Source: Parcubacteria group bacterium (GTDB lineage: Bacteria; Patescibacteriota; Patescibacteriia; Buchananbacterales; UBA6539). Taken from it: a DNA stretch of 64,000 nt. Positions 7,009 to 61,703 of this stretch are shown here, in pieces. Every line of letters starts with the position of its first letter. Position 1 is the first letter of the stretch. The DNA lies in assembly GCA_002687175.1 (NCBI GenBank), contig NYZP01000001.1, forward strand, positions 839-64,838, in the 5' to 3' direction. A program made the translations under genes and the position numbers. Below the pieces are notes generated by a model. The model was not told the DNA's origin and did not search any database. It saw only the letters and a program-made list of their open reading frames with translations.

Positions 7009-7031
7009 GCGGGGCAAACGCCCCGTTTTTT
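7009..7031 (+). terminator. rho-independent terminator after rpsI
   Basis: GCGGGGC-AAAC-GCCCCG stem-loop followed by TTTTTT. Confidence 0.7.
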
Positions 7032-7046
7032 GATATAATAAAATAT

Positions 7047-7592
7047 ATGAAAGAAAACAATGAAATTGCAATTTTCGGTGGGGGATGCTTTTGGTGTACC
7101 GAAGCCACTTTTAGCCAACTAAAAGGTGTCAACAAAGTTACTCCTGGTTTTGCTGGTGGAACTGGTGATGTTAACTACGAAAAAATTCACAGCGATAACA
7201 CTGGGCACGCTGAAATGATTGAGGTAACTTTTGACCCAGAGATCATTTCATATGATGATTTACTGTCCGTCTTTTTCACAATTCATGACCCAACCACAAT
7301 TAATAAACAAGGGGCTGATGTTGGTACTGAATATCGGTCAATGATTTTATACACCTCTGATGATCAAAAAACTAAAGCTGAAGCAATGATAAAAAAATTA
7401 AATGATGACAACAAAACGTATGATATGCCAATTGTTACTGAAATAAAACCACTAGACAAGTTTATTAAAGCTGAAGACTACCACCATAATTACTACGAAA
7501 ATAATAAAGATCAACCTTATTGTCAGATTGTGATTAATCCAAAATTAGAAAAACTAAAAGAAAAACACGCTGAGCTTTTGAAAATTTCTTAA
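7047..7592 (+). CDS. msrA: peptide methionine sulfoxide reductase MsrA
   Basis: Catalytic GCFWC motif (IAIFGGGCFWCTEATF) and MsrA fold-length protein of 181 aa. Confidence 0.9.
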   Translation: MKENNEIAIFGGGCFWCTEATFSQLKGVNKVTPGFAGGTGDVNYEKIHSDNTGHAEMIEVTFDPEIISYDDLLSVFFTIHDPTTINKQGADVGTEYRSMILYTSDDQKTKAEAMIKKLNDDNKTYDMPIVTEIKPLDKFIKAEDYHHNYYENNKDQPYCQIVINPKLEKLKEKHAELLKIS

Positions 7593-19962: not shown

Positions 19963-20275
19963 TTTTTATAGCGATAAAGGTTACAATATAAATATCACTG
20001 TTAATCTGAACCAAAGCAAGGAGACCCTCCTATGAGAAATAGAATCTTCAACCTAAAGAAAGGACGGTGATTATCTCTTCTTACAGCTCTGCTGTGAGTC
20101 GTACCTTGTTGTTTAACTGATCTTTCCAACTTCAGTCACTATGACTGTTTGGCACAACAATAAGCATACTCACGAAGGGAGGGAGGGGAACAAGTGTCGA
20201 AAACATCGGAAGTTGAAACACCTCTAGTTGTAGTATAAATTGTGGAACAGACGACCAATGGAGGATACTCAAGCT

Positions 20276-20701
20276 ATGCGTAAGACATTGATGTTTATGT
20301 GTACCTGCGCCGTAGCGCTTGCATTCGTTGCCCTGACGGCTGAGGCAGAGATTATATCTGTCACGAACAAAACCGCTATCGGCGTAACCACAGCGCAGGA
20401 CGCATCGAACCCAGCCCTGACGGCAACCTCGTATTGCAAGACTACGGGAACGATGATTGCAGCTATGCAGACGCAGAGTCCAGCTTCGGACATAGATCTC
20501 TTGCAGCTCGACACGGTCGAGAATACCACGGCAGAACCTCGCGACGCGGTCCAAGAACAGGAGGTCAGTGGCTTCGCCGCGAACATGAGACCGGCGATGG
20601 CGGACAGCTTCTTGCATTCGGCGATGATGATGGCCGAGAACTTGACGGCGAATCCCGCGAACACGGTAAATGAGGTGAGTGGCTTCGCCGCGAACATATG
20701 A
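20276..20701 (+). CDS. small secreted Thr/Ala-rich protein in GC-rich island (141 aa, signal peptide)
   Basis: GGAGGA SD 10 nt upstream. MRKTLMFMCTCAVALAFVALTAEA|E is a signal peptide. About 57% GC against about 33% for the flanks. Contains an internal EVSGFAANM/I repeat. In frame within the track ORF at 20240. Confidence 0.45.
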   Translation: MRKTLMFMCTCAVALAFVALTAEAEIISVTNKTAIGVTTAQDASNPALTATSYCKTTGTMIAAMQTQSPASDIDLLQLDTVENTTAEPRDAVQEQEVSGFAANMRPAMADSFLHSAMMMAENLTANPANTVNEVSGFAANI

Positions 20702-20710
20702 GACCGGCGA
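20564..20710 (+). repeat. two copies of a ~34-bp direct repeat (gt[c/g]agtggcttcgccgcgaacat(at)gagaccggcga) 77 bp apart
   Basis: Read directly: copy 1 at 20564-20597, copy 2 at 20675-20710. The second copy spans the stop codon of the island ORF. Confidence 0.7.
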
Positions 20711-21093
20711 CTATCACTGCCGCCAATCACTTCGCGCTGAACTGGGTGTTCAGCCGTAATGGTAGCGCTTCTCGCGCACTTTCTTCGGCTCCAGTGGCTC
20801 TGTTTCCTGGTTGATGCGTGAATCGTATCACACGAGTCTCTGACTAGCCTAAGTAACATTACAATTTACCCCTTACGCAGACGTTGACCTCACGGTTCGA
20901 CCTGCGTCCTACATTCCCCCAGACTTCAATAACAGGACAGCTTAGCAGCAGCCCAAGTTAAAGATTTCTGAGGGGTCTTTTTTTTATGATTGACTTTTTG
21001 TAAAATAAATGATAGTTTCAAGCTTAGAAACTAAATGATCTTTAACTTTTCATCTTGATTGACATCTCACCGTCAGTGGAGGGAGAATTTTCA

Positions 21094-24712: not shown

Positions 24713-24811
24713 ATGAAGTCGCTAGGTGAGATAATCGCCGTAGTATTAGCGGTTGGGTTTGTTACGTTATACGAATTTTTTCTAGCAATTAGGAAAATGA
24801 CAAACACGTAA
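24713..24811 (+). CDS. small hydrophobic peptide 3 (32 aa, 1 TM)
   Basis: GAAAGGA lies 5 nt before the ATG. MKSLGEIIAVVLAVGFVTLYEFFLAIRKMTNT. Confidence 0.45.
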   Translation: MKSLGEIIAVVLAVGFVTLYEFFLAIRKMTNT

Positions 24812-24832
24812 GACCATAGAAGGAGGTGGGTG

Positions 24833-25003
24833 ATGACTTTGTTAGAGTGGGGAATACTGATATTGGCCGCAATGTTTATCTGCAATATTGTGGCTACTGG
24901 CATGTTCGGTCGAATAACTGGTGTAAAAAGTGCTGCTGTTCTACTTTCGGTGGGAGCAATTTATTGCTTAATCTGCCTAGCCAGGGGTGATGAAGAAATA
25001 TAG
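24833..25003 (+). CDS. small hydrophobic peptide 4 (56 aa, 2 TM)
   Basis: SD GAAGGAGGTG precedes the start. MTLLEWGILILAAMFICNIVATGMFGRITGVKSAAVLLSVGAIYCLICLARGDEEI. Confidence 0.55.
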   Translation: MTLLEWGILILAAMFICNIVATGMFGRITGVKSAAVLLSVGAIYCLICLARGDEEI

Positions 25004-25017
25004 AAAGGAGGTGAATA

Positions 25018-25197
25018 ATGCCTTGGTACGGATGGGTGGTAATTGTTTGGTTTTCCATAAACACATGGTTAGCCGTAGATCAAGTAAGGAGTGATAGATT
25101 TAGTCTAAAAGAAACACCAATGGTGTTTTTGTTTGGCATACTGACTGTGGTTTGGTTCGTCATTGATTATATGGTTGAGCAAAGTAGGCGGATGTAA
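25018..25197 (+). CDS. small hydrophobic Trp-rich peptide 5 (59 aa, 2 TM)
   Basis: SD AAAGGAGGTG lies 4-6 nt before the ATG. MPWYGWVVIVWFSINTWLAVDQVRSDRFSLKETPMVFLFGILTVVWFVIDYMVEQSRRM. Confidence 0.55.
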   Translation: MPWYGWVVIVWFSINTWLAVDQVRSDRFSLKETPMVFLFGILTVVWFVIDYMVEQSRRM

Positions 25198-25302
25198 CCT
25201 AACACCGGTTACTGACTAAATTGCTCGTTCATTTCTCTTAGCTCAACACATTTGTGGGGAGCTTTTTTTTATATATTAAGTCTGTTATAATTTTAAAGAA
25301 CT

Positions 25303-25545
25303 ATGGAAGATTTTAAAAAAATTTTGGCCAATAAAAAAAGTATAAAACCGCCAGCTTATCAATGGCAATATTTAGCTTTGCGCATAATTGATGAACTAAA
25401 TATCCCAGCCAAGAAAAGAAACTCAGTCTTTCAAGTCTGTAAAAAATATCCTAAGGATTTTATTGAGAAATGTTTAAACGATACTAAAGAGCTGGCTCAA
25501 GAAGGGGAGCCGTGGCGATATTTTTTTAAATTAGTAAATAAATAA
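25303..25545 (+). CDS. hypothetical protein (80 aa)
   Basis: ORF-track entry with no recognisable motif. Followed by a hairpin at 25549-25568. Confidence 0.3.
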   Translation: MEDFKKILANKKSIKPPAYQWQYLALRIIDELNIPAKKRNSVFQVCKKYPKDFIEKCLNDTKELAQEGEPWRYFFKLVNK

Positions 25546-26390: not shown

Positions 26391-27752
26391 TTATTCAATG
26401 TCTTCACCTAGGGGGTGAATGTTAACGGCCAATTGGCTAGTTTCAATTATATTATCCCACTTGTATGCAAAATTGGCAAATGCTGATTCTGATTTAATCC
26501 AACGACGGAAACCATCCGAAATAACGTACACCTTAGAACCATCTTTAATTTTTATTAATTCACCATCTTCGAACTTGATTGGTAGACCAGTCAGGTATTG
26601 ATCAAGCTCTTCCGGACTAACTTGAGTTAACACCTTGCCTTTAAACTTAGCATCCATGATTTCCCGAGAATATATTGGATGTTTAACACCATCCTGAACA
26701 TGAAACACTCCACCACTTTGATCATCTTGAATTAAAGCACCGGTTGGATAGATACTTTCAACCGTAATTTCTACTCCATAGCTATAACCAGCTAAGTCAG
26801 CTTCGGTGACTTCAATGATTTCTTCGGGATTAAAACCAATTGTTCGAAAAACTTCTGGCGAGGAAATGTAACGTAAATCATCATCGACTAAAAGATACGT
26901 TTTGCCATCCGATAAACCTAAAATAGAATAGTTGTAAAATTGTATTGGCGAGCCATCTTCATATTTTTCTAAATCAGTTTGGGAAGTAGTGATAATTTTA
27001 TTAGGGTCAAACCGGGAAATAAAAACTCCCCAAGAAGTTACTAACCGTTTGGCACCATACTGAATCCACCAAACCGCCGGACTGTTATAGGATTTCAATA
27101 AAGAACCATCGGGATAGTCTCGTCCCCAGTAATTCTGCCAAATCTGCCAAAACCGATTGTTACCGTGATAGTGCGGCGTATAATTATAGAGATTGGCTGT
27201 CGCTTGATTAACTGGTTTAATATACCAGTCATCAATTAAAAATGTTTTATCTTTTTGATAAGTCCATTGAAAAGGGTTTTCAAAATATTGCCGAAGTTGC
27301 CAAGTAGCCCCATCAACTTGTTTACCAAAATCTAAAGTATTGGGATGACATGAACCGCTGTCCGGACAACGATAACCCATGGCTCGATCTAGACGCTTTT
27401 GAGTCGGGGAAGGGTCATCAATTAAACTTTGCTCTTTTTGCAAAGTGGCAATAATTACTTTCGGACTGATAAAACTTTCTTGAGCTGCTTGCCAAATTAT
27501 TTCCGAAGCCTTTTTATTGACCCCATTATAATCAGTAGTAATTAAATTAGCCAAACCACTATTACGCTGAATTAAAAATCCCTGAATGTCTTCCAAAGAC
27601 ATTGAAAGTTGATCAGTCATTTCTTCATCGGTAATCACAAAATGAGGATTAAAAAAATAGTCCTGCTCAGCGGCAACGACTGGCAAAAATGTCATCATTA
27701 AAAAACAGACACAACTTAGACTGAAAATTATCAATTTAGTAGTAGATATCAT
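26391..27752 (-). CDS. hypothetical secreted protein (signal peptide, 453 aa)
   Basis: N-terminal signal peptide (FLPVVAAEQDYFF). No recognisable catalytic motif. Confidence 0.45.
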   Translation of the reverse strand: MISTTKLIIFSLSCVCFLMMTFLPVVAAEQDYFFNPHFVITDEEMTDQLSMSLEDIQGFLIQRNSGLANLITTDYNGVNKKASEIIWQAAQESFISPKVIIATLQKEQSLIDDPSPTQKRLDRAMGYRCPDSGSCHPNTLDFGKQVDGATWQLRQYFENPFQWTYQKDKTFLIDDWYIKPVNQATANLYNYTPHYHGNNRFWQIWQNYWGRDYPDGSLLKSYNSPAVWWIQYGAKRLVTSWGVFISRFDPNKIITTSQTDLEKYEDGSPIQFYNYSILGLSDGKTYLLVDDDLRYISSPEVFRTIGFNPEEIIEVTEADLAGYSYGVEITVESIYPTGALIQDDQSGGVFHVQDGVKHPIYSREIMDAKFKGKVLTQVSPEELDQYLTGLPIKFEDGELIKIKDGSKVYVISDGFRRWIKSESAFANFAYKWDNIIETSQLAVNIHPLGEDIE

Positions 27753-27807
27753 AAGTTGATTATAACATTTTAAACTATGGTAGTTAAGTAAAATTTAACA
27801 AAGAAAA

Positions 27808-27875: not shown

Positions 27876-28061
27876 TTATTTGGGGATCCGTACTGATTTT
27901 CCCTGAGCATTTCTGATTTGAGCAAGTGCTTTGTCAGCACACTTCGGGCAATAGCCGTGACTAACACCAGGCCCTAAATCTTCCTTAGCTGCCAGAGACC
28001 ACGTAGCACTACCTTCGGGTCCTCGACGGATTTTTTTACAAACGCAACACTGCACTATCAT
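27876..28061 (-). CDS. small zinc-ribbon protein (61 aa) in GC-rich cassette
   Basis: MIVQCCVCKKIRRGPEGSATWSLAAKEDLGPGVSHGYCPKCADKALAQ... has CCVC...CPKC. About 50% GC. Start overlaps the upstream gene by 4 nt (ATGA). Confidence 0.5.
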   Translation of the reverse strand: MIVQCCVCKKIRRGPEGSATWSLAAKEDLGPGVSHGYCPKCADKALAQIRNAQGKSVRIPK

Positions 28062-28642
28062 GTATTAGTCTCTCCCTCCGATTGGCCGATAATTGAACGG
28101 CAGACCGGACAACAGCTGTGCTCCAAAAGCAAGGTAACAGTCTTGCCATTTAGCTGCTGCCAGGTTCCGTCTTGGCAAACTTTCTGACAACGACCGCAAA
28201 CCGGAACCAACTCTGGCTCTTGACCATCAGCGATCTCAGACGTCAGCTCGTCAACGTGCATTATGAACCAAACCCATGATCCTTGATCTAAGGAAAGTAC
28301 TGGAGTACCTGCCTCAATCTTGTCGGGATCTTCGGCCAGTACAGCACTTGAAAAAACAGCAATCTTCGTCTTGGGATCAAGTGCTTTCATTTGTTGAATC
28401 AACTGACTGCTACTGGCCAAATCGATAACGGTCAGATTAATAACCATTCGAAGCAGTCGCCACTGTTCGAAACAGTCACTTTGATCAACGGCCATCAGCA
28501 CATTAAAATGTGCTTCCGTCAGCTTTGACTCAAGCTGCTTGCGCATCTCTTCATCTTCGTGCAAGACCAACACAGTCCTGGGTTGGTTCCCTTCAAACAT
28601 TGTCCCTAGATCGTCTATTTCTGTGCATTGTTTCATGAGCAA
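28058..28642 (-). CDS. receiver (REC/CheY-like) domain protein with C-terminal Cys-rich zinc-ribbon-like region
   Basis: SD AAAGGAGG lies 8 nt before the ATG. The N-terminal region (VLVLHEDEEM...VIDLASSS...KIAVFSS...K) has the REC acidic pocket pattern. C-terminal VPVCGRCQ...SCCPVC. About 50% GC. Confidence 0.45.
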   Translation of the reverse strand: MLMKQCTEIDDLGTMFEGNQPRTVLVLHEDEEMRKQLESKLTEAHFNVLMAVDQSDCFEQWRLLRMVINLTVIDLASSSQLIQQMKALDPKTKIAVFSSAVLAEDPDKIEAGTPVLSLDQGSWVWFIMHVDELTSEIADGQEPELVPVCGRCQKVCQDGTWQQLNGKTVTLLLEHSCCPVCRSIIGQSEGETNT

Positions 28643-28756
28643 TGCCTCCTTTTTGGTTGTGGGTTAAAGCCACAATTTGAAAGGATAACATTGTTACAAA
28701 ATCTTGATGAGTCTATACAATATTTGTACAGACACCAGATAAAAAGAGCTTAAAAT

Positions 28757-28795
28757 AACCCCTCACGGGGTAAACCCCTTTGAGGGTTACTGTTA
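28757..28795. repeat. GC-rich nested stem-loop (AACCCCTCAC-GGGG-taaa-CCCC-TTTGAGGGTT)
   Basis: Read directly. It lies in the intergenic region between the REC-gene upstream region and the tagA promoter. Confidence 0.45.
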
Positions 28796-28885
28796 AATAA
28801 ATTAACACTTTGATAACTTTGTCAAGTAAGCAGTTGCTAAAAACACTTAAAATAGTTAGAATAAAAGCATTGTAACTAAAATAAT

Positions 28886-29662
28886 ATGGCTAAAGTTGAT
28901 ATTCTGGGTGTTCAAATTGATAACCTGTCTTTACAGGAAGTTTTAGAAAATATCAAACAATTTTTGAATTCTCGAAATCAACACTTTATTGTGACCCCTA
29001 ATCCAGAATTTTTAGTGGCCGCCAATAAAGATCAAAACTTTAAACAGATCTTAAATTATGCCGATATTGCAGTGGCCGACGGTATTGGACTTATCAAAGC
29101 TGCCAAATTTTTAGGTAAGAGATTGCAACGAGTTACTGGGGTTGATCTGGTTTGGGCAATATCAGAACTGGCCGCTGAAAAAAAATATCCAATCTATTTT
29201 TTAGGGGCTGATGAAATGATTGCCGCCCAAACTGCTGAATTTTTAAAACAAGAGTTTAATAAACTAAAAATTGCCGGCGCGGAAAGTGGCGGCGAGATTA
29301 TTAACCCCCAAACCCCTGACCAAGACTTGATCAAACGTATTCAAGAAGCCAGACCCAAAATTTTGTTTGTTGCTTTTGGTCAGGTTAAGCAAGAAAAATG
29401 GATTTTTGCTAATTTAGATAAATTTCCATCAGTCAAACTGGCGGTGGGAGTTGGCGGTGCTTTTGACTATATCTCTGGTGAAGTTAGTCGAGCTCCAAAA
29501 TTTTTACGCCAAGCCGGACTAGAATGGCTCTGGCGGTTAATTCAACAGCCTGCTAGATGGCGACGAATAATTAATGCTGTAATTATTTTCCCTTTATTAA
29601 TCCTGTTTCGAAAATATTTTCCGGAAAAGATGCCGGAAAATACCAACGAAGACACTGAATAA
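28886..29662 (+). CDS. WecB/TagA/CpsF-family glycosyltransferase (GT26)
   Basis: FIVTPNPEFLV ... ADIAVADGIGL ... FLGA...ILFVAFGQVKQEKW is the TagA/WecG pattern. Confidence 0.75.
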   Translation: MAKVDILGVQIDNLSLQEVLENIKQFLNSRNQHFIVTPNPEFLVAANKDQNFKQILNYADIAVADGIGLIKAAKFLGKRLQRVTGVDLVWAISELAAEKKYPIYFLGADEMIAAQTAEFLKQEFNKLKIAGAESGGEIINPQTPDQDLIKRIQEARPKILFVAFGQVKQEKWIFANLDKFPSVKLAVGVGGAFDYISGEVSRAPKFLRQAGLEWLWRLIQQPARWRRIINAVIIFPLLILFRKYFPEKMPENTNEDTE

Positions 29663-29671
29663 TAAAAAATA

Positions 29672-31090
29672 ATGTCTAAAAAAATTGTAACTCGTTTTGC
29701 TCCCAGTCCAACTGGTTTTTTACACGTCGGTAGTTTACGAACTGCCATGTATAATTTCCTTTTTGCTAAAGCCAACAAAGGAGATTTTTTATTACGGATT
29801 GAAGACACCGACCAAACCAGAAAAGTTAAAGGCGCTCAAGAAAGTTTACTAAAATCTCTAGAACAATTTAATCTAGACTGGGATAATAAAAAAATTATGG
29901 TCCAGTCAGAACGGCTGAAAGATTATCAAGCCGCAGCTGAGAAACTGGTCAAAGAAAAAAAAGCTTACAACTGTTTTTGTTCTAAAGAACGTTTAGATAA
30001 TTTACGGAAAGTCCGACAGCAAAAAGGTTTGCCACCAATGTACGATGGACATTGCACCAATTTACCAGACAAAGAAATTGACTTAACCAAAGACCACGTT
30101 ATTAGATTTAAAATGCCCAACTCTGGCCAAACTAAGTTTAATGATTTAATAAGAAATAAAGTTATTTTTGATAACAAACTTTTAGATGATCCAGTTATCT
30201 TAAAGTCAGATGGTTTTCCTACTTACCATTTAGCCTCGGTGGTTGATGATCATGAAATGAAAGTCAGCCATGTTATCAGAGGAGAGGAATGGCTGCCATC
30301 AACTCCTAAACATATTTTATTACACGAAGCCCTTGATTTTAAGGCACCAGAATTTGCCCATTTACCACTGCTGCTAAACGCAGACCGATCAAAGTTGTCT
30401 AAACGACAGGGTGATGTGGCAGTTGAAGACTTTTTAAAACAAGGTTACCTTGAAGAAGCTTTACTTAACTTTGTCTTACTGCTTGGCTGGAATCCAGGGA
30501 CTGATCAAGAAATTTTTAGTTTAGAAGAAATGATAAAAAGCTTTGATCTAAAAAAAGTTCACAAAGGTGGAGCGCTGTTTAATACCCAAAAGCTTGATTG
30601 GCTTAATGGAGAGTATATTAAACAAAAATCGTTACCAGAACTGACCAAACTCTGCCAACCATTTTTTGCAGCAGCTGGTATCAAAACTGACTTAAAACAA
30701 TTAGAAAAAGTGGTGGCCACTGAACAGCAAAGAATTAAAAAATTAAGTGATATTGTCGAGGGCAGTGAATTTTTCTTTAAGATGCCTAGCTACGATTCTA
30801 AACTACTTATTTGGAAAAAGGGGACTGTCAAAGATGCTACTGAGAATTTAAAGGTGTTATTAGAATTTTTAGATAACTTACCCGAAAACCAGTGGAATCA
30901 GCAAGATCTTGAAACGGCAATTAAAAAATTAATTGAAGAAAAAAAAATTGGAGTAGGGGATATGCTTTGGCCCATGCGGGTAGCCCTGACTGGCCGAAAA
31001 AATTCTCCCGGTCCATTTGAAGTGGCTGAAGCTTTAGGAAAAGAAGAAAGTTTAGCTAGAATTAAAAAAGCAATTGATTTATTAAGCTAA
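29672..31090 (+). CDS. gltX: glutamate--tRNA ligase
   Basis: HIGH-like motif (RFAPSPTGFLHVGSLRTAMYN) and KMSKS-like motif (KLSKRQG). Class I GluRS length. Confidence 0.9.
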   Translation: MSKKIVTRFAPSPTGFLHVGSLRTAMYNFLFAKANKGDFLLRIEDTDQTRKVKGAQESLLKSLEQFNLDWDNKKIMVQSERLKDYQAAAEKLVKEKKAYNCFCSKERLDNLRKVRQQKGLPPMYDGHCTNLPDKEIDLTKDHVIRFKMPNSGQTKFNDLIRNKVIFDNKLLDDPVILKSDGFPTYHLASVVDDHEMKVSHVIRGEEWLPSTPKHILLHEALDFKAPEFAHLPLLLNADRSKLSKRQGDVAVEDFLKQGYLEEALLNFVLLLGWNPGTDQEIFSLEEMIKSFDLKKVHKGGALFNTQKLDWLNGEYIKQKSLPELTKLCQPFFAAAGIKTDLKQLEKVVATEQQRIKKLSDIVEGSEFFFKMPSYDSKLLIWKKGTVKDATENLKVLLEFLDNLPENQWNQQDLETAIKKLIEEKKIGVGDMLWPMRVALTGRKNSPGPFEVAEALGKEESLARIKKAIDLLS

Positions 31091-31101
31091 ATTCGAATAG
31101 G

Positions 31102-31131
31102 GCATAACCAGGTTATGCGTGATTAATTTTT
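31102..31131 (+). terminator. terminator after gltX
   Basis: GCATAACC-a-GGTTATGC hairpin followed by a T-rich run. Confidence 0.5.
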
Positions 31132-31330
31132 AAAAATAAACTTGGTATTTTAGCTAAAAATAGATGGGTTCGTATAACCACTGTTATACGGCTCCACTTC
31201 GTTCCGCATACACTCTGTTTTCGTTTATGTGATAGTCCCTCCTGACGTCGGGACAATTATATCACAACTCTCAAACAGAGCGTCGTATAGCAAGGTACGT
31301 TGTGAGTACATATAGCTTGCTATTTGAAAT

Positions 31331-31358
31331 AAAAAAAGGCCGACTAATTTAGCCGGCT
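31331..31358 (-). terminator. terminator of - strand cassette gene
   Basis: On the - strand, GCCGGCTAA-at-TTAGTCGGC (one G.U pair) followed by TTTTTTT. Confidence 0.55.
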
Positions 31359-31652
31359 ACAACAAAGATCAAGGATAGTTCGTCGTTGCCAAGAACGCAT
31401 TCCTAAAAACTGATCACAAACTCTACAGAATTCTCCACCCCCCGTCGAAGAATCATGCCGGGGATGACTACAGGCATCTTGAAGTATGGCTAGTTTCTCG
31501 GTAAGGGGTCCCTTCTCCTCACGAAGTGACGTCTTCTTTTCCTTAGGTATTCCCTCCTCACTCAAGACAGCTTCAATTTGAGCTAGTCTAGTGGTGATGT
31601 TGGGAATTTCGTGTTCTACCTCTGCCATTGTTATTCTTTCTTCTTTAACCAT
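31344..31652 (-). CDS. hypothetical Cys-rich protein (102 aa) in GC-rich cassette
   Basis: On the - strand, TTGACA-17-TAGTAT promoter and AGGGAG SD 9 nt before the ATG. The C-terminal region CSHPRH...CRVCDQ...CCSRL is a putative metal-binding site. About 50% GC. Confidence 0.45.
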   Translation of the reverse strand: MVKEERITMAEVEHEIPNITTRLAQIEAVLSEEGIPKEKKTSLREEKGPLTEKLAILQDACSHPRHDSSTGGGEFCRVCDQFLGMRSWQRRTILDLCCSRLN

Positions 31653-31858
31653 GGCAAAATACTCCCTAGCTGTTCACTTACATTTACATTGTTAAATACT
31701 AAACATTATTAATAAAATTGTCAACATTAAAAAAATGAAGGTCAAGTCATACGTCTCACAACACCAGTTATCTGGTTCGCTCTCCCTCTCGCTGACGCTC
31801 TAGGTCGACCCAAATCTCTACCTTAAAATATAGTTCTGACCGTGTTATAATACAATAG

Positions 31859-33274
31859 ATGTTAAAAACAAAAAATAAAAATGAGGATACCCTGAGATCC
31901 CGGATCAAGTCCGGGATGACATCCCAGGGTGACGAATGGAAAAGAGTATTAGTTAACTTACTAATAATTAGCTTTGTGATGGCTAATTTTTTTGTTGCTC
32001 CCTTGCAAGCTCAGGAAGGTTATGACATCACGGAAATTGAAGAAAATACCGAGTCGGAAAAGACTGCCGAAGAACTGGCCGAAGAACAAAGGTTAAAAGA
32101 TGAAGCTACCAAAAAAAAGAGAGAAGAAGAAATAAAATTGGCTGAATTAAACAAAAACATCAGTAATAAAAGAGATGCTATTAATACTTTACAAAAAGAG
32201 ATTGATGCCTACGCCGTACAAATAAAAGATAAGCAAGGTGAAGCTAGGGGACTGCGCAATCAAATTGCTATTTTGGATAACCAAATTGCCAAAGTAAATT
32301 TGGATATTGAATCAACTGAGCTTAAAATTGACCAAACCAATTTAGAAATCCAAACATTAAATATTGAAATTGAAAATGTTGAAGCCGAAGTAACCATCAA
32401 TAAAGTACGGCTAGCAGAATTTATTCGCTTGATTTATAAAAATGATCAAGTCAGTTATTTGGAAGTTATCTTAACTAATGAATCTTTTTCTGATTTTTTT
32501 GATCAAATAAAATACACCGAGGAAATTCACACCGACATTAAGTCAAGTTTAACCAAATTAAAAAATAGCAAACAAGACCTTGAAACTCAAAGAACTAACT
32601 GGGAAGAAAAAGCTCAGCTGGAAGAGGATTTAAAAAACGAACTCCAACAAAATATTGATGGTTTGGATGAAAAAAATACCGCCCAAGAAATTTTGCTGGT
32701 TCAGGCCAGACTAACTGAACGACAATATCAAAATTTTCAATACCAGCTACAGCTAGAACAACAACAAATTAATTCAGATATAATTAATTTGGAAAAAGAG
32801 GTTCGAGAAAAATTGGAAGCCAGGGAGTTTGCTGAACGATTTAGTGGTTTTGGTCCAGCTCGTTTGGCCTGGCCAGTTAACCCTAGCCGTGGTATTACTG
32901 CTTTTTTCCATGATCCTGATTATCCCTTCCGCTATATTTTTGAACATCCAGCCATAGATATTCGAGCTTATCAGGGTACCACCATTCAAGCACCGGAAAA
33001 TGGTTATGTCGCCAGAGTTAAATTTCGTGGTGACACCAGCTATGCTTACGTAATGTTGATTCATAATGACGGACTATCAACAGTGTTCGGGCATGTCTCA
33101 TCGGTGTTAGTTAATCAAGACGAATATGTTACTAAAGGCCAAACCGTAGCTTTAACTGGTGGTATGCCGGGAACCAACGGAGCTGGTAATTTAAGTACCG
33201 GACCACATCTTCATTTTGAAGTTAGATTCAACGGCATTCCAGTTAACCCGTTAGAATATTTACCACCATTTTAA
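31859..33274 (+). CDS. M23 family metallopeptidase with N-terminal anchor and long coiled-coil (EnvC/LytM-like murein hydrolase)
   Basis: The C-terminal domain has HxxxD and HLHFE motifs (FEHPAIDIRA...GPHLHFEVRFNG). The central ~250 aa are heptad-like with Q/E/K/L repeats. A likelier start is ATG 31917 (MTSQGDEWKRVLVNLLIISFV...), after a GC-rich 5' hairpin. Confidence 0.8.
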   Translation: MLKTKNKNEDTLRSRIKSGMTSQGDEWKRVLVNLLIISFVMANFFVAPLQAQEGYDITEIEENTESEKTAEELAEEQRLKDEATKKKREEEIKLAELNKNISNKRDAINTLQKEIDAYAVQIKDKQGEARGLRNQIAILDNQIAKVNLDIESTELKIDQTNLEIQTLNIEIENVEAEVTINKVRLAEFIRLIYKNDQVSYLEVILTNESFSDFFDQIKYTEEIHTDIKSSLTKLKNSKQDLETQRTNWEEKAQLEEDLKNELQQNIDGLDEKNTAQEILLVQARLTERQYQNFQYQLQLEQQQINSDIINLEKEVREKLEAREFAERFSGFGPARLAWPVNPSRGITAFFHDPDYPFRYIFEHPAIDIRAYQGTTIQAPENGYVARVKFRGDTSYAYVMLIHNDGLSTVFGHVSSVLVNQDEYVTKGQTVALTGGMPGTNGAGNLSTGPHLHFEVRFNGIPVNPLEYLPPF

Positions 33275-33276
33275 TT

Positions 33277-34059
33277 ATGCCAACTATTCAAGAAAGGATT
33301 ACGGCACTGGTTATTTGGTTAATTGTAGTCTTGGCTACCTTTCTTTATGCTCGCTATTACTACCACTTAAAAACAGTTGGCGAAATTATATTGGCTCTTT
33401 CACCAGCAATAATATTCTTTACTGGCGGAATTTTAATTTTTAGTCGAGATCGAAAAAAAATCAAACGAGCTAAACAAAAAAATGAGCTCAAACGTACTGT
33501 TGAGCTGGAATGGGGTCAAGTCATAAAACACGATGCTTTAACTTACTTAACTCCAGTTATTATTTTGTCCATTCCTTTCTTTTTTGGTCAGCTACCCAAT
33601 ATTACAAGTGTCACTCAGGCCAGCGCCACCTTTCTGGCTTTATCATACTTAAAATTTATTTACTGGGGGGGGAATTGTAAAAATTTAGTAATAATAAAAA
33701 GGGTTGAAGGAGAGGGGGAGCTCCTTCAACCCTGTGAGGCGAACTCCACTCGTAAGCGGAGTCCAGAGGGAAAAACTATAAAGATCTATGTTAACACTCT
33801 AAATGAGTGTTGTTTAAGTTGGCCGGTGGGACTGTGGGGTGTATCCCACCGGCCAGGGGAGGGAAGGAGTTGGAGCCATGTATGGACATGCTCCAATCCT
33901 GGGGTCATACAACACACTGGCTTCCAAACCAGGGTGCAAAAAACAAATACGGCGCGGAGGGCCTCAGACCATTTACCATGTATACCAGCAAACGATTTGG
34001 GCCCTCCGCTGGAAGGAGATTACGCACAATGCGCGATAGCTACTAAGCGCCTACGCTAG
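33277..34059 (+). CDS. membrane protein; 3' ~360 nt of ORF run through a GC-rich structured element (C-terminal end uncertain)
   Basis: The first ~130 aa have 3-4 TM helices. After the G9 tract at 33664-33672 the frame stays open only through a GC-rich palindromic region, giving a compositionally aberrant tail (RPGEGRSWSHVWTCS...). Confidence 0.4.
   Translation: MPTIQERITALVIWLIVVLATFLYARYYYHLKTVGEIILALSPAIIFFTGGILIFSRDRKKIKRAKQKNELKRTVELEWGQVIKHDALTYLTPVIILSIPFFFGQLPNITSVTQASATFLALSYLKFIYWGGNCKNLVIIKRVEGEGELLQPCEANSTRKRSPEGKTIKIYVNTLNECCLSWPVGLWGVSHRPGEGRSWSHVWTCSNPGVIQHTGFQTRVQKTNTARRASDHLPCIPANDLGPPLEGDYAQCAIATKRLR
33664..33672. repeat. G9 homopolymer tract
   Basis: Read directly (tactGGGGGGGGGaatt). 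Both alternative frames hit a stop within 8 codons. Confidence 0.9.
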
Positions 34060-34060
34060 A
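33701..34060 (+). other. GC-rich highly structured element (candidate structured ncRNA or mobile palindromic insert)
   Basis: Perfect stems: GGGTTGAAGGAG/CTCCTTCAACCC (12 bp), GGCCGGTGGGA/TCCCACCGGCC (11 bp) and GCGGAGGGCC/GGCCCTCCGC (10 bp). Additional hairpins AACACTC/GAGTGTT and TTGGAGC..GCTCCAA. Strong terminator 160 nt downstream. Confidence 0.35.
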
Positions 34061-34217
34061 GGAGCTCAACGCCTATAAGGGGACGGAGCTCACTCAAACA
34101 TTGTACGATATCAACCATTATGCTAACAAATTTTTAAAAAAATGTCAACCCCTTAAAAACCTTGAATTAAAAGAAGAAATCAAGGATTTAAAAACTAAAA
34201 TTCAGCTAGAAGGTAAA

Positions 34218-34247
34218 AGGCTTCAGGAAAATTCCTGAAGCCTTTTT
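34218..34247. terminator. bidirectional rho-independent terminator
   Basis: AGGCTTCAGGAA-aatt-CCTGAAGCCT followed by TTTTT on +. The - strand reading is also followed by TTTT. Confidence 0.7.
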
Positions 34248-34249
34248 GG

Positions 34250-34501: not shown

Positions 34502-34618
34502 AATTGGCCATAAAAATTTACCGCCAAGTAAAGTAGGACAAAGTGATTGTAAAGTACCAGCATTTAATTATGCTATATATTTTAAAACTTGTCAACCTTA
34601 TTTGCTAAACCAAAAACC

Positions 34619-34650
34619 AGCTCACTATCTCTGAGCTGGTTTTTTATGAC
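34619..34650. terminator. bidirectional terminator
   Basis: CCAGCTCA-ctatctc-TGAGCTGG followed by TTTTTT on +. There is also a T-run on -, directly after the stop of the 34656..35036 gene. Confidence 0.6.
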
Positions 34651-34655
34651 TTATT

Positions 34656-37424: not shown

Positions 37425-38503
37425 ACCTCTTTTGGTTGATACTCAGTACTTAATTTATTTTTTTCGTCATAGCGTTCAATCGCCAAATCAATCAATTTTT
37501 CTAACAGCTTAGAATAAGCTAGTCCTGAGGCTTGCCACAACTTTGGATACATAGAAATTGAAGTAAAACCGGGAATGGTGTTAGCCTCATTTAAATAAAC
37601 CTTATGTCCTTTCTTAGTGACCAAAAAATCAATTCGTGCCATTCCGGACAAATTTAAAACTTTAAAGGCCTCTACGGCATAAACCTGAATCTGCTTTATC
37701 ACTTTATTTGGTAATTTAGCAGGTATCACCTCTTCGGAACTTCCATCAACATATTTAGCATCATAATCATAAAATTCATTTGACGAAATTATTTCACCAG
37801 GTACTGAAGTCTTGGGATTATCATTACCTAAAACGGCAATCTCAATTTCATGAGCATTATCAATCCCCTGCTCGACAATAACTTTAGTATCATACTTAAC
37901 CGCGTCATTAACTCCTAAAATTAGTTCTTTGTGATTGTGACATTTAGAAATTCCGACACTGGAACCTAGATTAGCCGGTTTAGCAAACATCGGAAATTTG
38001 AGCCCCCTGCCCTTGATCTGTTTTAATATCTTACTTTTATTATTTTTCCAATCTTTTGCTAAAAACCAATCGTACTTTACGCTGGGTATCTTAACTTGAT
38101 CACAGAGTTGCTTTTGAACCACTTTGTCCATGGCGACTGCTGATCCCAAAACTCCAGCCCCAACATAAGCAATATCTGCCATTTCCAACATTCCTTGAAC
38201 TGTACCATCCTCGCCATATGAACCATGCAGTACAGGAAAAACAACATCAAAACGTTTAAGTAAACTATCAGGAATTAATTCAGCACCTTTTTCTTTGATT
38301 TTTCCCGACTTCAAAGAGATAACTGGATTTGTGGTAATCCACTTACCATCTTTAGTAATGCCAATAGGAATTACTTGATACTTTTTTCTATCCAAAGCTT
38401 TCATTACTGATTGAGCAGAAACTATTGAAACTTCGTGCTCTCCTGATTTTCCACCAAAAATAACACCTACTTTAATCTTACTATTTTTACTTATTTTAGC
38501 CAT
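37412..38503 (-). CDS. ddl: D-alanine--D-alanine ligase
   Basis: KVGVIFGGKSGEHEVSIVSAQSV... and the ATP-grasp motifs (PVLHGSYGEDGTVQGMLE, FAKPANLGSSVGISK). Confidence 0.9.
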   Translation of the reverse strand: MAKISKNSKIKVGVIFGGKSGEHEVSIVSAQSVMKALDRKKYQVIPIGITKDGKWITTNPVISLKSGKIKEKGAELIPDSLLKRFDVVFPVLHGSYGEDGTVQGMLEMADIAYVGAGVLGSAVAMDKVVQKQLCDQVKIPSVKYDWFLAKDWKNNKSKILKQIKGRGLKFPMFAKPANLGSSVGISKCHNHKELILGVNDAVKYDTKVIVEQGIDNAHEIEIAVLGNDNPKTSVPGEIISSNEFYDYDAKYVDGSSEEVIPAKLPNKVIKQIQVYAVEAFKVLNLSGMARIDFLVTKKGHKVYLNEANTIPGFTSISMYPKLWQASGLAYSKLLEKLIDLAIERYDEKNKLSTEYQPKEVWYR

Positions 38504-38520
38504 TTTTATGTAATTACTGT

Positions 38521-39044
38521 TGACAATTATTAAATAGTGTGGTTAACCTACGATCATGCAAATGTGGTTAGTGAATACCGCCGAACAGGTATATACTACC
38601 ACATCAACCGCTCTACGGAGCACAAGGAGGACACAGCGCGAAGAAGAAGAGCACGGCGTCCGGTGCGACGACGAACATGGCCTTCTCCGGCGGGTAACGA
38701 CCCAGCCGGCGGCGCGGGGAGACGTTGCGGAAGAGCAACACAAAAATGGCAGTAAAGAGCGCTGGTGCACCAGCGCCGAAGACGAACGGCACCGGTTTTT
38801 TTCTACCGGAGCCACACAGGTAACACCTAGCTCGCGACGCGTTTCGGTCAAGTTGCTCCCACCCTCCGACCGTCGATCCGCTCAACGATTCGAAATTCGA
38901 CAGGTCGCTGGTTCCAGGGAAGATTACGAGCGCTCCTCCTGATTTCACGTAGGATTCGATGGCCGAAATGGATTCTTCGGCGTAGGAGTCGATATCCAAA
39001 GCGAGGACTACTGGATACGGAATCAGTTGGTCGGTGGGGCGGAT
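38521..39044. other. GC-rich (~58% GC) non-core island between ddl and alr; probable degraded foreign insert
   Basis: TTGACAAT at its left end and GGTCGGTGGGGCGGATTTATTTTTT at its right end. No ATG-initiated ORF with an SD. The track ORFs here start at TTG and have skewed R/A/P/G-rich composition. Confidence 0.4.
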
Positions 39045-40160
39045 TTATTTTTTATACACCCTTTCAAGCTCTGAATTTATTCTGGTTACTACTTCGTAAT
39101 TAATTGTTCTAAGTTTATCTGCCATTTCATCGGCAGTATTTTTTTTACCTACTAACTCAACTTCATCCCCTGCTTTAATACTTTTTATTTTAGAAACATC
39201 AATCATGGTTAAGTTCATGCATACACGTCCAATCACCGGACATTTCTTATTTTTAACAATAACCTCACCATTATTAGATAAATGCCGATCATACCCTTCC
39301 CAGTAACCAACTGCTATAACTGCCATTTTTAACCTTCTGGGGGCAGTGTAAGAGCAACCATAACCTACTTTAGTGCCTTTACTTATTATTTTAACTTGTA
39401 AAACTTTAGTCTTCCAGGTTAGTGCTGGTTCTAAACTTAACCAAGGATAATGTTTTAAAGCAATCTTCTCGGCTTGTTCTGAAGGCCATAATCCGTAAAG
39501 TGATAAACCCAACCTAATTAAATTAAAATGTGCTTGCGGTTCAACTAAACTGGCAGCGCTACATCCAAAATGCACTATTGGTATTTTTATTTTGTCATTC
39601 TGAACTTGTTTCAGAATCTGATTAAAGACTTTTAGTTGATATTTAGTATACCCTACATTTTCCTCAGAAGCGGCAAAGTGACTATAAATTCCTTCAATTT
39701 TTATATTTGGTAACTTATCAACTTGTTTAATAAACTCTACGGCATCTTTTACCAGAATGCCCACGCGAGTTGTGCCAGTGTCAATCTTAATATGCACTTT
39801 GGCAGTTTTTTTTAACTTCTTAGCAGTGCCTGATATTAATTTAGCATAACTTAAACTGTAAATTGGTAAATCAATATTTTGCTTAATTCCCTCTTTTAAA
39901 TAGCGACTTTGGGCATAACTCAAAACAAATATTCTTTTTTTAACATTGTGTTTTCTAAGTTCTAATGCTTCTCCTAAACTAACCACTCCTAGCCACTTTA
40001 CCTTGGGTAAAATCAGCTTTGTTACCTCAATCATGCCGTGTCCATAGGCGTTACTTTTGACGATAGGCATGACTTCAACGCCTTTACCAACAATTTTTTG
40101 GTATTGTTTTAGATTATATAAAATAGCAGATTTTGATATTTCAACCCAAGAATTGTACAT
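39045..40160 (-). CDS. alr: alanine racemase
   Basis: PLP-lysine motif VKSNAYGHG. C-terminal beta-domain with a conserved Y (GYWEGYDR). Confidence 0.9.
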   Translation of the reverse strand: MYNSWVEISKSAILYNLKQYQKIVGKGVEVMPIVKSNAYGHGMIEVTKLILPKVKWLGVVSLGEALELRKHNVKKRIFVLSYAQSRYLKEGIKQNIDLPIYSLSYAKLISGTAKKLKKTAKVHIKIDTGTTRVGILVKDAVEFIKQVDKLPNIKIEGIYSHFAASEENVGYTKYQLKVFNQILKQVQNDKIKIPIVHFGCSAASLVEPQAHFNLIRLGLSLYGLWPSEQAEKIALKHYPWLSLEPALTWKTKVLQVKIISKGTKVGYGCSYTAPRRLKMAVIAVGYWEGYDRHLSNNGEVIVKNKKCPVIGRVCMNLTMIDVSKIKSIKAGDEVELVGKKNTADEMADKLRTINYEVVTRINSELERVYKK

Positions 40161-40200
40161 CTAATTATAGCTAATTTTAGCTGTTATTTAAACTTTACTA

Positions 40201-40229
40201 TTGACAAATCTGTAATTATATGATATATT
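40201..40229 (+). promoter_or_regulatory. sigma70-like promoter of small GC-rich cassette (TTGACA-17-TATATT)
   Basis: Read directly. Followed by a 5'UTR hairpin TCTCTTT-taatcacg-AAAGAGA and a strong SD. Confidence 0.45.
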
Positions 40230-40287
40230 ATTATATTCTCTTTTAATCACGAAAGAGAAAACCCGGTACGAGAAGGAGGTGCACATT

Positions 40288-40440
40288 ATGTCGCGTAAAG
40301 AACTGCAGGACGCAGCAACTAAGTTGCTGAGGGAAGACGGATCCCGGTGGGATGGCAGAAAAAAATCTGCCGTAAAATCCGGTCAGACCAGCTTCGAAAT
40401 GCGAATGCAAGTCGAAGCGGTTGGCGCTGGTAAACACTAG
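40288..40440 (+). CDS. small hydrophilic protein (50 aa) in GC-rich cassette
   Basis: SD AAGGAGGTG lies 6 nt before the ATG. MSRKELQDAATKLLREDGSRWDGRKKSAVKSGQTSFEMRMQVEAVGAGKH. About 53% GC. Not in the ORF track (under 60 aa). Confidence 0.45.
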   Translation: MSRKELQDAATKLLREDGSRWDGRKKSAVKSGQTSFEMRMQVEAVGAGKH

Positions 40441-40467
40441 CGACTAACCAACCGAACACCCGTTCTA

Positions 40468-40516
40468 CCGACCCACTACTTTATATTACTTGATATGGTG
40501 GGTCGGATTTATTTTT
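40468..40516 (+). terminator. terminator of the small cassette (CCGACCCAC-21nt-GTGGGTCGG + ATTTATTTTT)
   Basis: Read directly. The T-run overlaps the serS stop codon on the opposite strand. Confidence 0.5.
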
Positions 40517-49883: not shown

Positions 49884-50031
49884 GACTAACCTCCTATTTA
49901 GTTTAGATTGTCAATGAACACTTCACATCATAAAAAAACTCTCCGTACTTAGAGAGCTTTTCTAAAAACAACATAATGTCTTCTTAGAGAAGCTCTCTAA
50001 GTGCACTATGTTGATTGAGATAATTTATTAG

Positions 50032-50547: not shown

Positions 50548-50599
50548 AGCTCGACTAAATAAAAATAAACGCCATCGGCGCTACATTGATTTGTATATT

Positions 50600-51140
50600 C
50601 ATCTACTAACATTTTACCACTTATAAAAATAACGTCAATACACAAAAGTGGATAAATTGTGATCTAGTTAATTTTTTCTAAAGTTTTATTTAAAGTATTA
50701 TATTTATGATGTTTCTTTTGATTATCTATGTATTTTCTTACTATGGTAAAATCTTTTTCCGATAGGCTAAAAACACCATACCCTTTCTGCCAAAAAAAAT
50801 TTTGATTATTTTGTGAAATATTTATATAGCGTGACGAGCTTCCTTTAATTCTATTGACAAATTCAGAAATGCTAACCTTCGGAGGTATATGACGTAATAA
50901 ATGGACATGATCATCTATATTGTTAAATGTAAAACTCTTACCATGACACTCAATTATTTTTTTTTGGAATGTAATTTTTTATTAATTTTTCAATTGGATC
51001 AGTAATTAAAGGTTCTCTATTCTTAGTAGACCAAATAATATGATAATATAATTTATGAAAAACATTTGACATATCTTTATTATCGCCCGGGCATTCATGC
51101 CCGGGCTGAGATTTTACAAATGTCCCTAAAGGGACATAAT
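50600..51140 (-). mobile_element. IS200/IS605-family insertion sequence (tnpA only), with subterminal hairpins
   Basis: Carries a Y1 HUH transposase ORF. There are perfect palindromes GCCCGGGCAT-tc-ATGCCCGGGC (51085-51106) and ATGTCCC-taaa-GGGACAT (51118-51135) upstream of tnpA, as at IS200/IS605 left ends. The boundaries are approximate. Confidence 0.6.
50664..51072 (-). pseudogene. tnpA: IS200-type Y1 transposase TnpA, frameshifted at an A9 tract
   Basis: N-terminal part MSNVFHKLYYHIIWSTKNREPLITDPIEKLIKNYIPKK. After the A9 run at 50957-50965 the frame changes to ...DDHVHLLRHIPPKVSISEFVNRIKGSSSRYI...FWQKGYGVFS, with the HUH motif and catalytic Y. The total span is 409 nt, not a multiple of 3. 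Confidence 0.65.
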
Positions 51141-51222
51141 TTTTAAATTTAGCACTCCCTTATCTTACTACGCTCTAATTTTATCTTTAAACCAAGGAAG
51201 AGAATATTACAGCCCTGCCCTT

Positions 51223-51270
51223 CAGGGCTGGGCTAATTCAGGGCTGGGCTAATTCAGGGCTGGGCTAATT
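51223..51270. repeat. 16-bp tandem repeat (cagggctgggctaatt x3) preceded by inverted copy agccctgccc
   Basis: Read directly. It lies between the IS end and the mrdA terminator. Confidence 0.8.
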
Positions 51271-51307
51271 AAAATATATTGGCTAATTAAAATGCATCCT
51301 ACTGATT

Positions 51308-51335
51308 TAAAAATAAAAAAAGTGCCTAAGGCACT
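51308..51335 (-). terminator. terminator after mrdA
   Basis: On the - strand, AGTGCC-tta-GGCACT followed by TTTTTTTATTTTT. Confidence 0.6.
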
Positions 51336-51419
51336 ATGTTGATCCTGTCACTTGATATTTAGCTAAAGACTTTATTCATCTGTAAACATTTTACCATTTC
51401 TGAAAACCATGTCAATAAA

Positions 51420-61234: not shown

Positions 61235-61703
61235 GTCCCGTAGTAGAAATTTGATTAATAAATAGTTATCTATAGATTATAATGCCTGAGCTCTCTGCAA
61301 AGTCGCCTAAAGGCGACTTTCAATCAAATTTTCACTACAGGACATGGTTACATTTTATCATAATATAAGCTTTTGGCAAGTACTTATTATGCCAAATTTT
61401 AATAATTTGGTCAAAAAAAACCGCCGATTTACATTCGACGGTATGCACTGGACTTATTGGCTAATGTTACTAATCTAAAAGCCCCTTAATAACCTCTTGG
61501 GTTATTTTATCGGCAATTGAATTTTCAGACTGACGAAGATTCCGCTAGCCTTGAACCAGTGTTTGATCTAATTATCTGTCCTCCTTTGGACTAAAACCTT
61601 GGTAGTTAATCAATGTGACCAGTCATACCAACCGACAAGTCCCAGTATACCTAATATAACAAGCACTAGACAGCCAAAACGTCGGATGCTAAATGATCTA
61701 CTA

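Follow-up and report, generated by a model that had tools for sequence, protein, structure and literature searches.

A small gene of an unannotated, predicted zinc-knuckle family and a hairpin cluster at a variable gltX-M23 junction in a marine Parcubacteria genome

We describe the junction between gltX and an M23/PcsB-like peptidase gene in a 64,000-nucleotide (nt) stretch of DNA, called the window below, from a marine Parcubacteria metagenome-assembled genome of Tara Oceans (Patescibacteria, or candidate phyla radiation, CPR). The window as a whole has a GC content of 36.6%. Gene calls place a WecG-type glycosyltransferase (28886-29662), GltX (29672-31090) and the M23 peptidase (31859-33274) on the forward (+) strand, and a 102-amino-acid (aa) open reading frame (ORF) at 31344-31652 on the reverse (-) strand between the last two. 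gltX and this small gene converge, and the 253-nt spacer between them holds three hairpins, H1 to H3, which span 31171-31323. An earlier sequence-only reading of the window had taken the region for a possible cis-regulatory RNA beside a small metalloprotein gene, or for the remnant of an integrated element.

Using GltX, we scanned one genome per species and Joint Genome Institute (JGI) metagenomes and obtained 160 loci, more than 25 of which keep the order WecG-GltX-M23, all in Patescibacteria. The gap between gltX and M23 measures 768 nt in the window, as against 31 nt, about 80 nt and 95 nt in the three nearest relatives (L100, L006 and L101, with GltX identities to the window of 68%, 63% and 61%), in which the M23 promoter and start codon follow gltX almost directly. 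These short gaps indicate that about 0.7 kb (~31095-31820) is a lineage-specific insertion. Neither the species representatives nor the JGI metagenomes yielded a relative above 70% GltX identity, or one carrying the insertion. In three lineages at a greater distance the same place is occupied by unrelated genes (a lipoprotein-like ORF, a LysE-like membrane protein and a 230-aa ORF), and the junction is thus one that is repeatedly hit by insertions. The DNA of the island showed only a chance 53-nt AT-rich match to phages and plasmids, and six-frame translations of its non-coding parts, compared with all homologue loci, contained no pseudogene remnant. The right end of the insertion (31725-31822, 47% GC) is an unstructured filler (folding z against shuffled sequences +1.6/+0.6) that has no ORF and no similarity to anything.

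Another variable junction lies in the same conserved block, between p453 and WecG. In the window it holds a 47%-GC island (27876-28642, - strand) with two overlapping genes of 61 and 194 aa, both of which encode a C-terminal CxxC...W...SHGxCPxC-type motif, the larger one with a weak receiver-domain match; in L006 the same junction holds a different gene, of 185 aa.

The 102-aa gene is equipped with its own expression signals. A scan finds a sigma-70-type promoter, TTGACA-17-TAGTAT (31724->31696, - strand, 10/12 matches), and a Shine-Dalgarno (SD) sequence, AGGGAG (31667->31662), stands 9 nt before the ATG, at the place where the homologues have AAGGAGG. The gene ends in an intrinsic terminator (31329-31357, - strand), found by terminator scan and by folding, in which an 8-pair stem with one G.U pair (31357->31339) is followed by U7. 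The stop codon falls inside this hairpin, which is the only structure in the region with a GC-rich stem leading directly into a U-run. Promoter, SD and terminator are all as the sequence-only reading had them; the GC content, which it put at about 50%, measures 45%, with 36% at third codon positions (GC3), compared with 36-38% and 28-31% in the flanking core genes. With these signals, and with homologues that share conserved residues, the 102-aa gene is a real protein-coding gene.

Further small ORFs lie elsewhere in the window. A self-contained mini-gene at 40161-40508 (+) lies between the - strand genes alr and serS, on the opposite strand to both, and has the same architecture as the 102-aa island: a TTGACA-type promoter, the SD GAAGGAGGTG, a 50-aa ORF (~40288-40440, beginning MSRKELQDAATKLL) and an 11-bp terminator, in a region that folds with z -7.6. 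At 24800-25200 (+), a gap without larger ORFs contains two or three very small hydrophobic ORFs, each after a strong SD (GAAGGAGGTG, AAAGGAGGTG).

The protein itself is identical to an NCBI entry, 'hypothetical protein CMI53_00205 [Parcubacteria group bacterium]', and is encoded on a 242-kb scaffold. A word-indexed protein search returned only the query; phmmer against 1.84 billion representatives (E <= 1e-3) gave 12 matches. These are the query, P0006 and ten homologues, which range from 65 to 162 aa in length and from 1e-16 to 9e-4 in E value. P0006, a repeat protein of 1869 aa, was set aside as spurious. The family is rare and unannotated, comprising about 11 clusters, and the 102-aa protein gave nothing above noise in Pfam (sub-threshold coiled-coil noise only), PHROGs or PDB sequences. 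Its alignment with the ten homologues has 11 invariant columns and shows C61, H63, D67, S69, G71-G73, F75, C76 and C79 to be invariant, within the motif C-x-H-P-x2-D-x-S-T-G-G-G-x-F-C-S-I-C-D. An AlphaFold2 (AF2) model built on this small alignment contains a helical hairpin (residues 9-31 and 37-60, predicted local distance difference test score (pLDDT) 82-93), for which Foldseek returned generic helical hairpins only (E > 1), and a C-terminus of low confidence. The protein can therefore be described as a helical hairpin (residues 9-60), a predicted zinc knuckle, C61-x-H63-x12-C76-x2-C79, and a 17-aa tail. The four Cys/His residues are invariant in the family and probably ligate a zinc ion, although the model is of low confidence in just this part. 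The homologues stop 2-5 residues past the motif, and the window protein continues for another 17 residues and reaches into the terminator of its own gene; because this extension is absent from all homologues, the CCSRL cysteines within it lie outside the conserved site. Of the metal site that had been proposed, the C-x-H...C-x2-C part is thus invariant in about ten homologues, but the third ligand group, CCSRL, is not conserved.

The contexts of the homologues are unrelated to one another. Every homologue has a strong SD and a terminator of its own, and no consistent partner appears among the neighbours. Two of them, of 65 aa (P0007 and P0012), lie in phage contigs, one of which (L180) encodes an endolysin, a holin, an HNH endonuclease, a phage sigma factor and a nucleotide kinase, and the other (L181) a helicase, a radical-SAM protein, an exonuclease and a Sak4-like protein. 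The family is a rare one that probably moves between phages and CPR-like genomes, and its scattered contexts, together with its carriage by phages, suggest that the gene arrived horizontally. Around the island itself the neighbours are core genes, and searches of IMG/VR and the GenBank phages for signs of a prophage or phage remnant found no similarity in DNA or protein. The idea of a remnant of an integrated element is consistent with the lineage-specific insertion and the two phage-encoded relatives, but the locus has no integrase, terminal inverted repeat (TIR), target-site duplication (TSD) or repeat copy.

The closest analogy to the island is a single-gene accessory insertion of the moron type. 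Like a phage moron, it consists of one small gene with a near-consensus promoter and an intrinsic terminator, oriented against its neighbours, with a GC content above that of the genes on either side; the nearest relatives lack it at the junction, and its family has members in phages. Unlike a moron, it sits in a chromosomal core region rather than in a prophage, with no phage genes nearby. DksA/TraR-type proteins are also small, with a coiled coil or helical hairpin followed by a short C-terminal metal knuckle, and the likeness of the 102-aa protein and its family (~65-100 aa) to them is one of general architecture only: instead of CxxC-x17-CxxC, the family has C-x-H-x12-C-x2-C with an invariant D-x-S-T-G-G-G-x-F loop, and no Pfam, NCBI-style, PHROG or PDB match. 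An integron cassette with an attC site would likewise combine a short ORF with an imperfect palindrome of about the length of H2 (68 nt), and the sequence-only reading had spoken of a cassette. However, such a cassette has a promoterless ORF and an attC of the form RYYYAAC...GTTRRRY (R''-L''...L'-R') in an array next to intI, and here the gene has its own promoter and terminator, the genes called within +/-10 kb include no integrase, and there is no array; relative to the attC R''/R' arms, GTT and AAC are reversed in H2 (GTT in the 5' arm, AAC in the 3' arm), and H1, though it ends in AAC/GTT, has a loop of just 4 nt. We also rejected a transposon or miniature inverted-repeat transposable element (MITE), as neither TIR nor TSD was found around 31091-31858 and no second copy in the 64 kb. 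An IS200/IS605-derived element, of the palindrome-associated transposable element (PATE) kind, or a repetitive extragenic palindromic (REP) element was set aside in turn, since the hairpins stand on one side only, with an unstructured flank on the right, the L101 element described below is not similar, and the sequence is single-copy in the 64 kb.

The hairpins on the other side of the small gene differ in build. H1 (31171-31190) has perfect 8-bp arms around a 4-nt loop, CGTATAAC-cact-GTTATACG, with about -13 kcal/mol on both strands (z -3.4) and four further pairs possible on either. H2 (31213-31280, 68 nt, - strand) stacks three stems with internal loops between them: 8-bp outer arms CTCTGTTT/AAACAGAG (31213-31220 and 31273-31280), 7-bp middle arms TGTGATA/TATCACA (31228-31234 and 31260-31266) and 5-bp inner arms GTCCC/GGGAC (31235-31239 and 31250-31254). 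The internal loops are asymmetric (7/6 nt and 0/5 nt), and the loop of H2 contains CCCUCCU on the + strand and AGGAGG on the - strand (direct repeat D2). G.U pairs lengthen the outer stem to 11 bp on the - strand, where H2 folds with -32.9 kcal/mol (z -6.1), as against -23.3 kcal/mol (z -3.8) on the + strand. H3 has 8-bp outer arms ATAGCAAG/CTTGCTAT (31287-31294 and 31316-31323) and an inner GTAC/GTAC stem, and folds with about -11.4 kcal/mol (z -4.0 on the - strand, -1.7 on the + strand). In the three-level cluster of nested perfect palindromes that had been reported, H1, the outer and inner arms of H2 and H3 are present as described, but H2 is not one perfect palindrome, and its middle arms are 7 bp rather than 9 bp long. 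No small ORF in the hairpin region has both a start codon and an SD. After the gltX stop codon, a further palindrome, GCATAACC-a-GGTTATGC (31102-31118, + strand), folds with -7.2 kcal/mol (z -1.4). It exists as reported, but it had been called the gltX terminator, and it is a poor terminator at best; the terminator scan missed it because its U-run is displaced.

We compared the cluster with chance expectation. At least three perfect 8-bp inverted repeats (loops of 3-60 nt) fall within some 160-nt stretch in 25 of 30 random 64-kb sequences generated by a first-order Markov model, so the inverted-repeat count alone is not significant; the whole window contains 139 inverted repeats, against 92 +/- 7 in random sequence. 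The 206-nt hairpin region folds with z -3.55 (+) and -4.17 (-), and none of 200 shuffles is as stable on either strand. Most of this signal comes from H2, and the - strand is preferred by H2 and H3, H1 being symmetric. In a GC-corrected sliding scan of the whole window, the region ranks about 11th on the - strand. Rfam 15 gave no match in the window at gathering thresholds, and nothing in the hairpin region at E <= 0.5; the cmscan check that had been suggested remained without a family even at E <= 10, where the interval 30900-32100 showed only chance matches to eukaryotic or viral families and to the enterobacterial sRNA families STnc370 and GadY, all far below gathering scores. ARAGORN found no tRNA in the 64-kb window, which has no known RNA family either. 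Downstream of the 102-aa homologues there are only ordinary terminators (z ~-2) with no architecture in common with H1-H3, and IMG/VR scans with two hairpin patterns produced chance pattern matches only, with no flanking similarity.

A - strand extended -10 had been pointed out within the palindrome cluster, and it is there: TGATATAAT (TTGTGATATAAT in context, 31264->31256) lies inside H2 as a possible internal promoter, with no usable -35 and no downstream ORF. The window contains eight copies of the motif TGNTATAAT where 4.7 would be expected, so some of the matches must be chance. Five of the seven other copies stand directly before genes in the correct orientation (7031, 25283, 27759, 31843 and 35070), four of these only 6-11 nt from the ATG, and the M23 promoters of the relatives have the same TTGTGnTATAAT form. 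The M23 promoter of the window, TTAAAA-17-TATAAT with TG (31823-31851, +), was located by scan and by alignment with the relatives. Protein and DNA alignments with L100, L101 and L006 show that the extended -10, the 6-7 nt to the ATG and the first codons, M-x-K-x-K-N-K, are conserved, and this spacing implies a leaderless M23 mRNA. The same element, TGnTATAAT, stands 6-11 nt before the start codons of core genes that lack an SD at 7031-7047, 25283-25304, 27752-27767 and 31843-31859, and is placed alike in the relatives (L006 6487-6506, L100 5323-5343, L101 4093-4113). To judge from these positions, leaderless mRNAs would be common in this lineage; strong SDs are found at the inserted small genes, unlike at the SD-less core genes with an extended -10.

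The M23 gene contains a palindrome of its own. Alignments show a 16-codon (~48 nt) in-frame insertion at 31884-31939 (+), in the N-terminal cytoplasmic tail ahead of the membrane helix, and the extra codons coincide exactly with a GC-rich hairpin at 31889-31930 (58% GC, -26 kcal/mol, z -2.9). The sequence-only reading had noted this hairpin but counted it to the same island, as a 5' hairpin at the start of the M23 gene; it lies inside the ORF rather than in a 5' leader, past the conserved promoter and start codon, and is a separate insertion event. Like Rickettsia palindromic elements (RPE), REP elements and MITE-type elements (PMC1779305, PMC3733652, PMC10969869), it is GC-rich and in frame and leaves the gene intact. 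Unlike them, it is only ~48 nt long, much shorter than an RPE, single-copy in the 64 kb, free of a GTAG/CGTC tag, and without a REP-associated tyrosine transposase (RAYT) or other transposase in the window. As a speculation, the hairpin, ~30 nt past a leaderless start codon, could slow early elongation.

Taken together, we favour, with even confidence, a joint reading in which the island is an accessory insertion, the gene of the zinc-knuckle protein is likely horizontal, and the hairpins form a structured 3' tail. About 0.7 kb of accessory DNA would have entered an otherwise tight, conserved gltX|M23 junction. Its functional core would be one monocistronic - strand gene with its own signals, arriving in the manner of a phage moron, and the protein, with its N-terminal antiparallel helical hairpin, would probably act by protein-protein contact through that hairpin. 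H1-H3 may be transcribed as a 3' extension, or by read-through, of the 102-aa gene. In that case they would form a stable structured buffer that shields its 3' end and keeps transcription that reads through the weak terminator of gltX from running into the small gene. The - strand preference of intact H2 and H3 is a better fit to RNA that enters from upstream on the - strand, as a read-through or 3' extension of the 102-aa gene would. Stable stem-loops 3' of a gene, between convergent units and with strand-biased folding, are also seen in 3'-untranslated-region-derived small RNAs (sRNAs) and in convergent structured spacers; the stems of H1-H3 differ from those of such sRNAs in having no U-tracts and no conservation.

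Several observations weigh against this reading. None of H1-H3 has a proper U-run after its stem, and they are therefore not canonical backup terminators, and the terminator of the 102-aa gene looks efficient, so that read-through is possibly small. Eight of 18 folded intergenic gaps reach z <= -4 on some strand, and the hairpin spacer is in the middle of the ranking (-3.3/-3.7) and does not stand out in this genome. The perfect stems could also be DNA palindromes of recent origin and without function. The nearest relatives (61-70% GltX identity) do not have the hairpin region, and five contigs from different samples that carry the locus are 100% identical across the insertion, which gives zero variation for covariation. 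Within the window, the island and its hairpins are single-copy, as is the M23 palindrome, there are no TIR or TSD around 31091-31858, and the genes called within +/-10 kb include no integrase. The phage link rests on two metagenomic contigs, and IMG/VR, searched with two family alignments, and GenBank phages contained no family member.

The main rivals to the structured 3' buffer are a DNA-level relic and an independent sRNA. According to the first, which we regard as rather unlikely, the hairpins are non-functional or DNA-level remains of the gene's arrival, for example a recombination site or single-stranded-DNA hairpin belonging to a phage or to an IS200/IS605-like vehicle, or quasipalindromes produced by template switching, and whether they are transcribed would not matter. 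The stems are perfect and mutually unrelated, as in young DNA palindromes rather than old RNA helices, the hairpins, at 44% GC, look foreign for a spacer, and a second palindromic insertion lies 0.6 kb away, within M23. In L101 (5371-6320), an IS200-like Y1 transposase gene (Pfam Y1_Tnp, E 9e-34) directly follows M23, one gene away from the junction. On its flanks are matching CCCCGCAGCAGAGCTrCGGGG hairpins and other GC-rich ones, which makes this gene block a target of hairpin-bearing mobile DNA, and since IS200/IS605 elements leave no TIR or TSD, the lack of both is consistent with such a vehicle. However, the 64 kb contain neither a transposase nor an integrase nor a second copy, no similar pair of left- and right-end hairpins flanks the island, whose right side is unstructured, and the hairpins have no similarity to the L101 element. 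The G.U-dependent - strand preference of H2 would also be unexpected for pure DNA palindromes.

The second rival, for which the case is weaker and which we consider unlikely, is an independent - strand sRNA of ~100 nt that would start near 31249, ~7 nt past TTGTGATATAAT, end near 31150 after H1' and a AUCUAUUUUU tract, and act in trans or as an antisense RNA to the gltX 3' end. It draws on the TGNTATAAT motif, a good predictor of promoters here given the copies before genes, on the TTGTGnTATAAT form that drives M23 in relatives, and on the short U-run after H1'. On the other hand, the transcript would cut H2 in half, the 103-nt product predicted for it shows no unusual degree of structure (z -0.7), a -35 is missing, and Rfam matches and conservation are both lacking. 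The excess of eight motif matches over 4.7 expected leaves room for chance, and one of them (25581-25573) leads straight into a terminator and is probably such a case.

A more ambitious proposal, which we think improbable, would make the CHCC zinc-knuckle family a phage-derived RNA-binding or transcription-modulating factor and the - strand hairpin array, as a 3'-extended transcript or the TTGTGATATAAT sRNA, its cognate RNA. The two would form a new two-part module, acquired by a Parcubacteria bacterium with a reduced genome, and the M23 palindrome would come from the same palindrome-generating or -inserting activity.

Very improbable in our view is that the cluster is a cis-regulatory RNA, a riboswitch or leader of the 102-aa gene or a neighbour, paired with the zinc protein. 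The hairpins adjoin the gene, their structure is moderately significant, and CCCUCCU/AGGAGG in the H2 loop could pair with an SD or anti-SD. But the cluster is 3' of gltX on the + strand and 3' of the 102-aa gene on the - strand, and therefore cannot be the 5' leader of either, and on neither strand does an ORF with a start signal follow. The Rfam searches named above, the homologue loci, with their own terminators and no common structure, and the occurrence of the family in many contexts without a hairpin cluster all speak against the cis-regulatory RNA proposed earlier, and the hairpins are not a specific riboswitch or leader. A meaningless chance grouping of inverted repeats in a spacer, which the random sequences and the position of the region outside the top structured windows would allow, is hardly credible given the nested extra stems that put the stability of H2 well beyond that of shuffled sequence (z -6.1), the failure of all 200 whole-region shuffles to fold as well on either strand, and a window that is richer in inverted repeats than random sequence.

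Other parts of the window are also structured. The most striking, more so than the island 2 kb away, is a stretch of ~400 nt at 33690-34095 (-, 52% GC), in which about ten side-by-side hairpins fold with -174.5 kcal/mol (z -11.2; + strand z -5.2), a minimum free energy nearly equal to that of the centroid (-174.3 kcal/mol), and whose 3' end is a 13-bp hairpin, a strong terminator, followed by UUUUUAUUAUU. It has no Rfam match, all six frames are open, and it shows weak similarity (66%/99 nt) to the flank of the IS200-like element of L101. A 260-aa ORF at 33277-34059 is homologous to a 133-aa L006 protein only over its first ~130 residues. We regard 33690-34095 as a strong candidate for an unclassified structured noncoding RNA or a palindrome-rich element. 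The gaps 49884-50031, 34060-34249, 34502-34655, 28643-28885 and 20860-21054 fold with z -4 to -8 against shuffles, and 61235-61703 (+) with z -5.5. Nowhere in the window are perfect inverted repeats packed more densely than in the 872-nt gap 50548-51419 (four in 160 nt near 51090), where the sliding scan gives z -2.6 to -3.7 at 50971-51240. GC-rich segments (>=45%) at 20051-21000 and 38451-39150 have long overlapping ORFs on both strands, and these segments may be non-coding or wrongly called.

As it stands, the finding is of little significance: it adds a variable junction in a conserved Patescibacteria block and an unannotated small family, with a predicted zinc knuckle, that is common to CPR-like bacteria and phages. 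The placement of the extended -10 only 6-7 nt before the ATG, as expected of leaderless mRNAs, is useful for annotating genomes of this lineage. The protein family would matter more if it modulated the machinery of its host in the way of phage factors in CPR bacteria, a group in which the biology of phages and hosts is almost uncharted, and so would the hairpin tail if it were an expressed RNA.

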